Assembly (NCBI GenBank): GCA_016180435.1
Contig: JACPBG010000002.1
Span: 60,342 to 124,341, forward strand
Reading direction: 5' to 3'
Origin: Candidatus Sungiibacteriota bacterium
Lineage (GTDB): Bacteria > Patescibacteriota > Minisyncoccia > Sungbacterales > HO2-52-23
Length of the DNA stretch: 64,000 nt
Each line of letters opens with the position of its first letter. Position 1 is the first letter of the stretch. The notes beneath the pieces are model-generated. The model worked only from the letters and a program-made list of their open reading frames with translations, was not told where the DNA came from and searched no databases. Below, piece by piece: positions 63,712 through 63,848 of this stretch. Position numbers and translations under genes: made by a program.

Positions 63712-63848
63712 TTGGTTACAATTGGTAGGTTCTCGACCCGCTTCGCTCTCGCTCCAGCGAGGCGAGCAGGCTCGAACAATATTTTTCGAGCGAAGTCGAG
63801 AAGATACCTTTGATGATACCGACCTGCTTGCAGGTCGGAGGTTCATTT
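63712..63848. repeat. repeat family C copy 2, carrying a nested GC-rich family-2 element
   Basis: agcttgctggttggt...ggtaggttctcgac[ccgcttcgctctcgctccagcgaggcgagcagg]ctcgaacaatatttttcgagcgaagtcgagaagatacctttgatgataccgacctgcttgcaggtcggaggttcatt. Confidence 0.7.
63738..63771. repeat. GC-rich palindromic element family 2, nested inside repeat C copy 2
   Basis: ccgcttcgctctcgctccagcgaggcgagcagg is absent from the corresponding position (tcgacaggctcgaac) in copy 1 at 47310. Confidence 0.65.

Follow-up and report, generated by a model that had tools for sequence, protein, structure and literature searches.

A 30-nucleotide GC-rich hairpin that behaves as a mobile or copied element, nested in palindromes and in reading frames of Candidatus Sungbacteria and other, mostly CPR, bacteria

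The mitochondria of yeasts and other fungi carry GC clusters and palindromic 'byp'-type inserts, which are GC-rich palindromes of 30-50 nt that are mobile or polymorphic and that sometimes lie in coding sequence. In the cyanobacteria, small dispersed repeats (SDR) are said to have been described by Elhai and co-workers in 2008. The SDR are also named in PMC3116915, where the REP and REPIN elements are treated as sequences mobilised by RAYT (Y1 HUH) transposases. A case related to the mitochondrial GC clusters and 'byp'-type inserts has been reported (PMC7218506), as have intragenic small mobile sequences of the enterobacteria (PMC2759123, PMC2229807). The Rickettsia palindromic elements (RPE), finally, measure ~100-150 bp, fall into several families and are confined to Rickettsia; their insertion mechanism has not been established (PMC10969869).

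Here we present a GC-rich hairpin of 30 nt, identified in a 64-kb stretch of DNA from a Candidatus Sungbacteria MAG (this whole stretch is referred to below as the window). It is a REP/RPE-like mini-palindrome, and its behaviour is that of a mobile or copied element of unusually small size and wide distribution. The sequence of the insert is CCCGCTTCGCTCTCGC-N4-GCGAGGCGAG, which can be resolved into a 5'-CCCG, an imperfect GC stem of 13 and 11 nt with two bulged T, a variable loop of 3-4 nt and a 3' end that reads ...GGCGAG. Read from the sequence, the arms are devoid of stop codons in all six frames, and the 30 nt amount to 10 codons. The window holds exactly two matches to the palindrome pattern, as compared with none in 100 dinucleotide shuffles. 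One is located at 43686-43715 (+ strand), within a redoxin gene, and the other at 63737-63766 (+ strand), nested in the second copy of a long palindromic repeat designated repeat C, where it reads CCCGCTTCGCTCTCGC-TCCA-GCGAGGCGAG, or in full cccgcttcgctctcgctccagcgaggcgag. The two are identical at 26/26 non-loop bases and differ solely in the 4-nt loop, GAAA in the redoxin and TCCA in repeat C copy 2. A search of the whole window against Rfam at the gathering score gave no match to a structured RNA family. Furthermore, in the literature searched, which covered palindromic, in-frame and CPR/Patescibacteria elements as well as the sequence itself, this 30-mer is undescribed, as are in-frame palindromic inserts in CPR.

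By analogy, the architecture of the 30-mer appears closest to that of the REP elements and its behaviour closest to that of the RPE, but it does not pass the defining tests of either class. Like a REP, it is short, GC-rich and imperfectly palindromic, and its stem is preceded on the 5' side by a conserved tetranucleotide that stays unpaired (CCCG here, GTAG in E. coli), which is an analogy of architecture and not of sequence. Also as in REP, the stems are conserved and the loops variable, there is no target duplication, and new copies seem to enter or adjoin existing ones, thereby building clusters. REPs, however, are extragenic by definition and largely species-specific, whereas the 30-mer often lies within genes and has the same sequence in lineages that are very far apart. 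Moreover, its density is low, at 2 copies in the 64 kb of the window, and no RAYT gene was found among the ORFs of 91 loci or among the window ORFs tested. A related family of GC hairpins in the window (507-558 and 54570-54621) does form an inverted doublet, as in a REPIN; the unit that is filled or empty here is instead a single 30-nt hairpin. With the RPE the element shares the presence of a palindromic repeat, in frame, in unrelated housekeeping genes, where read-through as a fold-compatible peptide is predicted, together with its occurrence in non-coding DNA. Unlike the RPE, it has a length of 30 nt, consists of a single sequence, is found in CPR classes and, by label, in other phyla, and is nested in other palindromes.

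The mitochondrial GC clusters and the cyanobacterial SDR can be regarded as functional analogues. As with the mitochondrial GC clusters, a GC-rich palindrome stands out in a more AT-rich genome; the clusters are, however, organellar, some of them are skipped during translation or give rise to short duplications of the target, and their sequences are unrelated to the 30-mer. The SDR and the enterobacterial sequences resemble the element in being very small (about 20-170 nt), non-autonomous, nested, occasionally within genes and discovered through filled/empty pairs, but have different sequences and host ranges. To our knowledge, there is no report of a small repeat of the cyanobacterial or enterobacterial kind that recurs as one and the same 30-mer in lineages so far apart or that is systematically inserted in frame in essential genes.

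The redoxin gene (43507-44058, + strand) encodes a TlpA/ResA-like thiol-disulfide oxidoreductase. Here the 30-mer is in frame, with a net gain of 10 codons, and encodes (G)PLRSRESEA(S); the protein reads FRG[PLRSRESEAS]KPLIINVWASWCSYC. The insert is missing from 14/14 aligned homologues, the closest of which are 73-77% identical and all of which read FRG-KP at this position, and likewise from ResA 4nmu. At the DNA level, the empty site of syntenic relatives is tttcgcgg^caaaccc or tttcgcgg^caagccc, as compared with tttcgagg[30 nt]caagcc in the window, and excision of exactly 30 nt restores R-G-K-P. In an AF2 model of the protein (mean pLDDT 82), the sole segment with values below 50 lies in the insert (residues 61-70, with values under 50 at 61-67). 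It forms a loop that follows helix 55-59 and comes just before strand 73-78, on which WASWCSYC is located. As modelled, the insert would be a low-complexity, tolerated loop that the structure prediction cannot place.

Repeat C presents the same hairpin in a different setting. Copy 1 (47243-47413, + strand) occupies the spacer between PGI and glgA and is empty, with its empty site between 47309 and 47310; copy 2 (63670-63848, + strand; repeat family D9), which lies downstream of the PBP2 gene and is likewise long and imperfectly palindromic, is filled. A preliminary description of this DNA had placed the two copies at 47274-47413 and 63712-63848. Both copies are confirmed, on the + strand, but the repeat extends further in the 5' direction, to 47243 and 63670. 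Its claim that a GC-rich hairpin extra in copy 2 is missing from copy 1 was confirmed by alignment, and so was the presence of the same palindrome, in frame, in a TlpA-like redoxin, where it adds PLRSRESEAS. The insert given there as 33 bp is actually 30 nt, because the 'agg' that was counted in is also present in copy 1, where the junction reads ttctcga^caggctcgaa. Three indels in all separate the copies, which were described there as collinear: besides the 30 nt, a 24-nt apical-loop segment (47328-47351, + strand) is present in copy 1 and not in copy 2, and copy 2 has an extra GAT. The 5' parts of the copies are ~79% identical and the 3' 62 nt are nearly so. On both strands repeat C forms a long hairpin with imperfections, at fold z-scores of -4.8 to -6.6 (-5.7 on the + strand and -6.6 on the - strand for copy 2), and in copy 2 the 30-mer makes a hairpin of its own that branches from an internal loop of the long stem. 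Around both copies, Rfam in E-value mode gave chance-level matches alone, and promoter and terminator scans gave nothing beyond a weak terminator-like site in copy 2.

Since the PGI-glgA spacer of the syntenic relatives L103 and L105 is 28 bp long and without repeat C, as compared with 178 bp in the window, copy 1, too, is a derived insertion. On these sequence comparisons, both layers, the repeat between PGI and glgA and the hairpin, are derived. As expected of a multi-copy repeat, short-read contigs end inside repeat C, and some also in the hairpin. A metagenome scan with the 3' half of repeat C yielded three further copies (L094, L095 and L096), for a total of five known. L094 and L096 are one locus in two samples; both are empty at the junction (ttctcgac^aagctcgaa), and in L096 the 5' arm of the repeat is tandemly duplicated. 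L095, from another organism, lies downstream of atpF/atpH and is not orthologous to either repeat C locus of the window. It is filled at exactly the same internal site as copy 2, by a different GC element of 54 nt that has its 9-nt 5' end and 10-nt 3' end in common with the 30-mer. Its 5' arm, ttggttacTattggta, resembles that of copy 2 (ttggttacAattggta) and not that of copy 1 (tcggtcatcatcggta), and the core of the copy 1 apical segment, tagtgagccgcgtcgaac, is inverted in the apical loop of L095, where it corresponds to gttcgacaagctcacta. The junction is thus empty in three of the five known copies and filled in two.

Beyond the window, the dispersal of the 30-mer was assessed by scanning one genome per GTDB species, 596 Gb in all, with the pattern CTTCGCTCTCGC-N3-6-GCGAGGCGAG, for which our own arithmetic gives a chance expectation of ~0.3 matches. 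The exact-arm 30-mer was found at 91 loci in about 60 MAGs or assemblies. These loci reduce to 81 distinct flank contexts, and the flanks are unrelated. CCCG, which was outside the search pattern, precedes the stem in 75/81 contexts, and the loops are of 22 kinds, with GAAG, GAAA and TTCA the most frequent. One locus, L070, which has no CCCG prefix and a 6-nt loop, is probably a chance match. A mismatch-tolerant search of the 713 kb of fetched loci returned almost no diverged copies. The hosts are mostly CPR/Patescibacteria of many classes; Elusimicrobia, Planctomycetota/Brocadiia, Raymondbacteria, Bacteroidota/Ignavibacteria, Latescibacterota and Omnitrophota are added by depositor label, with the proviso that TPA_asm taxon labels are unreliable and that the non-CPR labels are supported weakly, by gene content. 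The PheT of an 'uncultured Gammaproteobacteria' TPA_asm MAG, for example, is closest to Levybacteria (the affected records include L026, L005 and L080), and the 'Saccharibacteria' contig L020 is near-identical to the Jorgensenbacteria contig L042. Among the genomes with matches that are labelled as non-CPR are Elusimicrobia UBA5214, Raymondbacteria RIFOXYA2_FULL_49_16, Bacteroidetes OH_SDB_17 and Planctomycetota MAG219. An exact-pattern scan of the IMG/VR viral contigs gave 0 matches, and blastn of a 31-mer against the PLSDB plasmids and INPHARED phages gave none, or chance-level partial matches.

Residence within genes is common, with 49/92 copies in open frames of at least 120 codons, all six reading frames in use and an orientation that is the same as the frame in 20 cases and opposite in 29. 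Hosts confirmed by Pfam are TopA, LigA, RecG, ValS, PheT, the Asp/Glu racemase MurI, an SMC-like protein and GyrB; in every verified host gene the reading frame is kept, and the translation is that predicted from the sequence. The orthologues of MurI form a series, in which some proteins have no insert, six have the outer palindrome only (SAK-GGPA), and L060 and L015 have the outer palindrome plus the 30-mer (SAK[GSPRIRESEA]GGPA). In the DNA, the empty ccaaagg^cggacc of L107 and L109 becomes ccaaagg[30 nt]cggacc in L060 and L015, with the same 30-nt boundaries and no duplication. In the MurI of L015 (P0122; 6143-6171 and flanks), a further insert of 42 nt, SHSSPSDARPSESR, lies beside the 30-mer and contributes 14 residues, as a third layer of nesting. 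PheT repeats the pattern at the protein level: P0241 (82% identical) has the outer palindrome only, and L026 has the outer palindrome plus ARLAEARAKR. In RecG (L003 and L028), the 30-mer lies between two other GC hairpins, and the composite minus the 30-mer is the double hairpin found in the window at 507-558 and 54570-54621. Within single genomes, the 30-mer is often embedded in larger repeats with common flanks.

Filled/empty pairs with the same 30-nt boundaries were thus obtained for the redoxin versus its relatives, for repeat C copy 2 versus copy 1, L094 and L096, for MurI and for PheT. No target-site duplication was seen in the filled/empty comparisons, with an ambiguity of at most 1 nt (C). 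The flank consensus in the 81 contexts is weak, c-g-R^C-R-R-g. A strict test for flanking inverted repeats, which required a stem of 6 or more without gaps, no further than 8 nt from the junction, was unconvincing (7% versus 2.5% in the control, with a control maximum of 8.6%) and was replaced by a folding test. In the latter, the joined flanks reach a folding energy of -22.75 kcal/mol and permuted pairs one of -20.84 kcal/mol (0.33 being the sd of the control means), and at least 8 junction-spanning pairs are formed by 67% of the joined flanks versus 49% of the permuted ones. A MITE was also considered as the identity of the element and was ruled out, since target duplication is missing in four filled/empty comparisons (at most 1 nt of ambiguity) and no parent IS was found. 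With the IS200/IS605 elements the 30-mer shares an imperfect hairpin with bulged bases, an adjacent guide tetranucleotide and the lack of a target duplication. Those elements, however, need a fixed 4-5-nt target 5' of the insertion, show a replication-linked orientation bias and have two different ends, whereas the 30-mer has the weak c-g-R as its left flank, is oriented 38:43 relative to GC skew, which is no bias, and has one hairpin. A classical IS200/IS605-type enzyme is disfavoured because strand bias and a fixed target are both missing.

The element is also more strongly conserved than the coding DNA around it. Between orthologues or paralogues, 300 nt of flank show 65-80% identity, and the element is identical, loop and CCCG prefix included; examples are L003/L028 and L015/L060, the latter pair sharing the rare loop GAAT. 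Since orthologous copies do not differ even where the coding DNA beside them has diverged to 65-80% identity, identity of the arms cannot be read as a clock. Comparison of these sequences points to some homogenising force or constraint acting on the element. Conservation above that of flanking coding DNA is not predicted by simple selfish decay and needs gene conversion or function. All-against-all clustering of the ORFs at the 91 loci revealed, as recurrent neighbours, only housekeeping families such as LepA, RpsB, kinases and GuaA. No transposase was detected near the 91 loci, and none by Pfam in ten atypical window ORFs, mostly on the minus strand.

On the whole, the best explanation, and one that we hold to be probable, is that the extra sequence is a discrete, non-autonomous insertion element of 30 nt that enters DNA precisely and would be recognised in trans. 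Entry is precise in that removal of the 30 nt restores the empty site exactly. Existing palindromes contain the element more often than expected by chance, for example repeat C, at a loop inside its stem, and the older palindromic inserts of MurI and PheT, at their apex, and nested hairpin composites that grow stepwise are the result. The element also enters protein-coding genes, where the surviving copies are those in frame; such survival can be understood because the unit is 10 codons long and its arms are stop-free in six frames. Once nested, the 30-mer is also passed on passively whenever the larger carrier repeat is copied. Its occurrence in both orientations relative to host genes and GC skew suggests that it acts at the level of DNA. 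A trans-acting factor would recognise the conserved CCCG and the bulged hairpin, the DNA at that moment probably being a folded single strand or a cruciform, given that the unpaired CCCG is conserved and the stem is bulged, and this recognition would resemble hairpin recognition of the REP/RAYT or IS200/IS605 type. Copies may be kept uniform by gene conversion among them, or by the constraint that recognition imposes.

Several other accounts of the two states of repeat C have to be set beside this one. The hairpin may have entered an older master repeat C once, in which case copy 2 reached the PBP2-downstream site already filled, and the filled/empty difference in the window would separate two repeat C sub-lineages instead of recording a recent insertion in place. 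We give this close to an even chance. It would fit L095, a non-orthologous locus of another organism that is filled at the same internal site, with the shared 9-nt and 10-nt ends and a 5' arm like that of copy 2 and unlike that of copy 1, and elsewhere the 30-mer clearly travels inside larger repeats; however, the filling of L095 is a different, 54-nt element, for which a hotspot struck twice is equally possible, and just five copies of repeat C are known. Going by sequence, the copying of a filled sub-lineage as a composite seems as likely as in-place insertion into copy 2. Thus, of the nested filled site proposed in the preliminary description, the discrete unit nested in repeat C is upheld, but insertion in situ into copy 2 is unsupported, L095 being filled likewise. 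Its term 'recent' is unsupported as well, since identity dates nothing when orthologous copies are identical despite flanks of 65-80%. Of the two signs of mobility that it had suggested looking for, target-site duplications are absent, and a polymorphic empty allele was not seen in other assemblies of this organism, all of which are filled or have the contig cut in the repeat. It had also named the opposite polarity, in which repeat C would originally have contained the 30 nt and copy 1 would have lost them by a precise deletion. That two of the five known copies are filled at the site would agree with this, but the other three are empty with an identical junction, other organisms included, in the redoxin, MurI and PheT these 30 nt, bounded identically, are an insertion of derived state, and a deletion would need to have removed precisely the unit whose insertion is known from independent cases; we consider it very improbable. 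That the hairpin was inserted or copied is, on the other hand, borne out by the empty/filled pairs of the redoxin, MurI and PheT and by the three empty copies of repeat C. An assembly or sequencing artefact is disfavoured as the source of the insert, and its probability is negligible. All sources are indeed metagenome assemblies, and contigs often break at these repeats, but independent Logan assemblies of other runs carry both filled states (the redoxin in L001 and L002, copy 2 in L100), which argues against an artefact, the inserts keep the reading frames of conserved genes, and the nested series extends across orthologues from different projects.

Two further alternatives concern the means by which an insertion element of this kind would be copied or retained. 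Template switching during replication, or short-patch gene conversion between palindromes, could copy the hairpin with no dedicated transposase. Consistent with this, no transposase lies near the 91 loci or in the tested window ORFs, target duplication and strand bias are both missing, the targets are themselves palindromes, the homogeneity of the copies fits conversion, and the redoxin target has CGAGGC in common with the 3' arm of the element. We nevertheless think it unlikely, because conversion would have scarcely any homology to follow, if any, at the sites in TopA, LigA, GyrB and the redoxin, the unpaired CCCG, conserved in 75/81 contexts, suggests recognition by a protein, and identity across very distant lineages needs a transfer vehicle. 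The 30-mer could, instead, be a functional nucleic-acid motif, acting in DNA or RNA for example as a structural signal or as a site for binding, that is kept by selection and for which mobility is secondary. This is less probable again. Such a motif might well be identical at orthologous positions, loop included, despite flanking identity of 65-80%, and have arms that are invariant across distant taxa, as is observed; it would not be expected in both orientations, in all six frames and in unrelated housekeeping genes, and the 30-mer is missing from close relatives with the same genes, has no Rfam match and has loops that are otherwise highly variable (22 types).

A bolder form of the insertion-element account, which we regard as doubtful in its entirety, is that the 30-mer ranks with the smallest among the known mobile DNAs that spread horizontally, moved by a putative hairpin-specific machinery common to CPR and other subsurface phyla, homing to palindrome apices and nesting stepwise into new surface loops of essential proteins in reduced genomes. 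If one 30-nt hairpin truly moves into essential genes of many uncultured lineages, it would help to define the lower size limit for mobile DNA. It would also point to an enzyme that recognises a short bulged hairpin, a possible tool, and to a general, so far undescribed route of protein-insert evolution, in which the nesting of palindromes leads to surface loops. The element may explain part of the lineage-specific insertions that lengthen CPR proteins relative to their homologues, may offer dated, stepwise examples of the passage from selfish palindromes to protein loops, and could serve as a marker of DNA exchange among subsurface bacteria. In practical terms, such repeats break short-read assemblies and add spurious low-complexity segments to predicted proteins.

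Additional observations were made on carriers of the 30-mer in other genomes. In Raymondbacteria MFYT01 (L017, L032, L066 and L086), four diverged paralogues carry the 30-mer with loop GAAA at one common position, ...ILKHCGLWKD[PLRSRESEAR].... They are putative IS91-type transposase genes by appearance; if so, they could be a vehicle that moves the hairpin between genomes. In L030, L045, L072 and L085, the 30-mer is at the centre of another widespread repeat, gtcattgcgagg...gaagcaatc, whose core, GCGAGGAGCGAAGCG, resembles the reverse complement of the 5' arm of the 30-mer, and the two may be related.

The window itself is rich in other repeats. The GC-rich double hairpin at 507-558 and 54570-54621 is 52 nt long, with the two copies 92% identical, and lies in frame in two unrelated genes, encoding RPAERGEPRPKGAGG in MnmA and SPAAQQSGASLAQN in glutamate dehydrogenase (GDH), at positions that are gaps versus solved structures (9hln and 2tmg). 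In appearance it is an inverted doublet whose unit, CCCGCCCC-loop-GGGGCGAG, represents a second hairpin family with the same CCCGC...GGCGAG ends as the 30-mer; in L003, L028 and L029, the 30-mer is exactly at the centre of such a second-family double hairpin. An intergenic GC hairpin of this family, CCCGCCCCG-atttctgt-CGGGGCGAGGCTCGCCC, is located at 52578-52613, just upstream of a thioredoxin-reductase-like gene and beside an AT-rich palindrome. Two adjacent paralogous ORFs of about 600 residues (38635-40593 and 41377-43101) are CxxC-rich and have internal repeats (families D4, D10 and D19); Pfam gave no match for the one of the two that was searched. Many window genes are followed by AT-rich palindromes composed of 7-nt units (AGAACTT / AAGTTCT). 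Intergenic examples are found at 11229-11305, 11693-11756, 12222-12311, 14595-14662 and 52458-52534, and others are in frame in MnmA and GDH (116-188, 760-821 and 54711-54755), those in MnmA forming inserts of about 13 and 20 residues versus 9hln. In the relatives, the corresponding intergenic position is taken by other, lineage-specific palindromes of 7-8-mers; that of L106 is acgaat/attcgt, and L103 has a different one.
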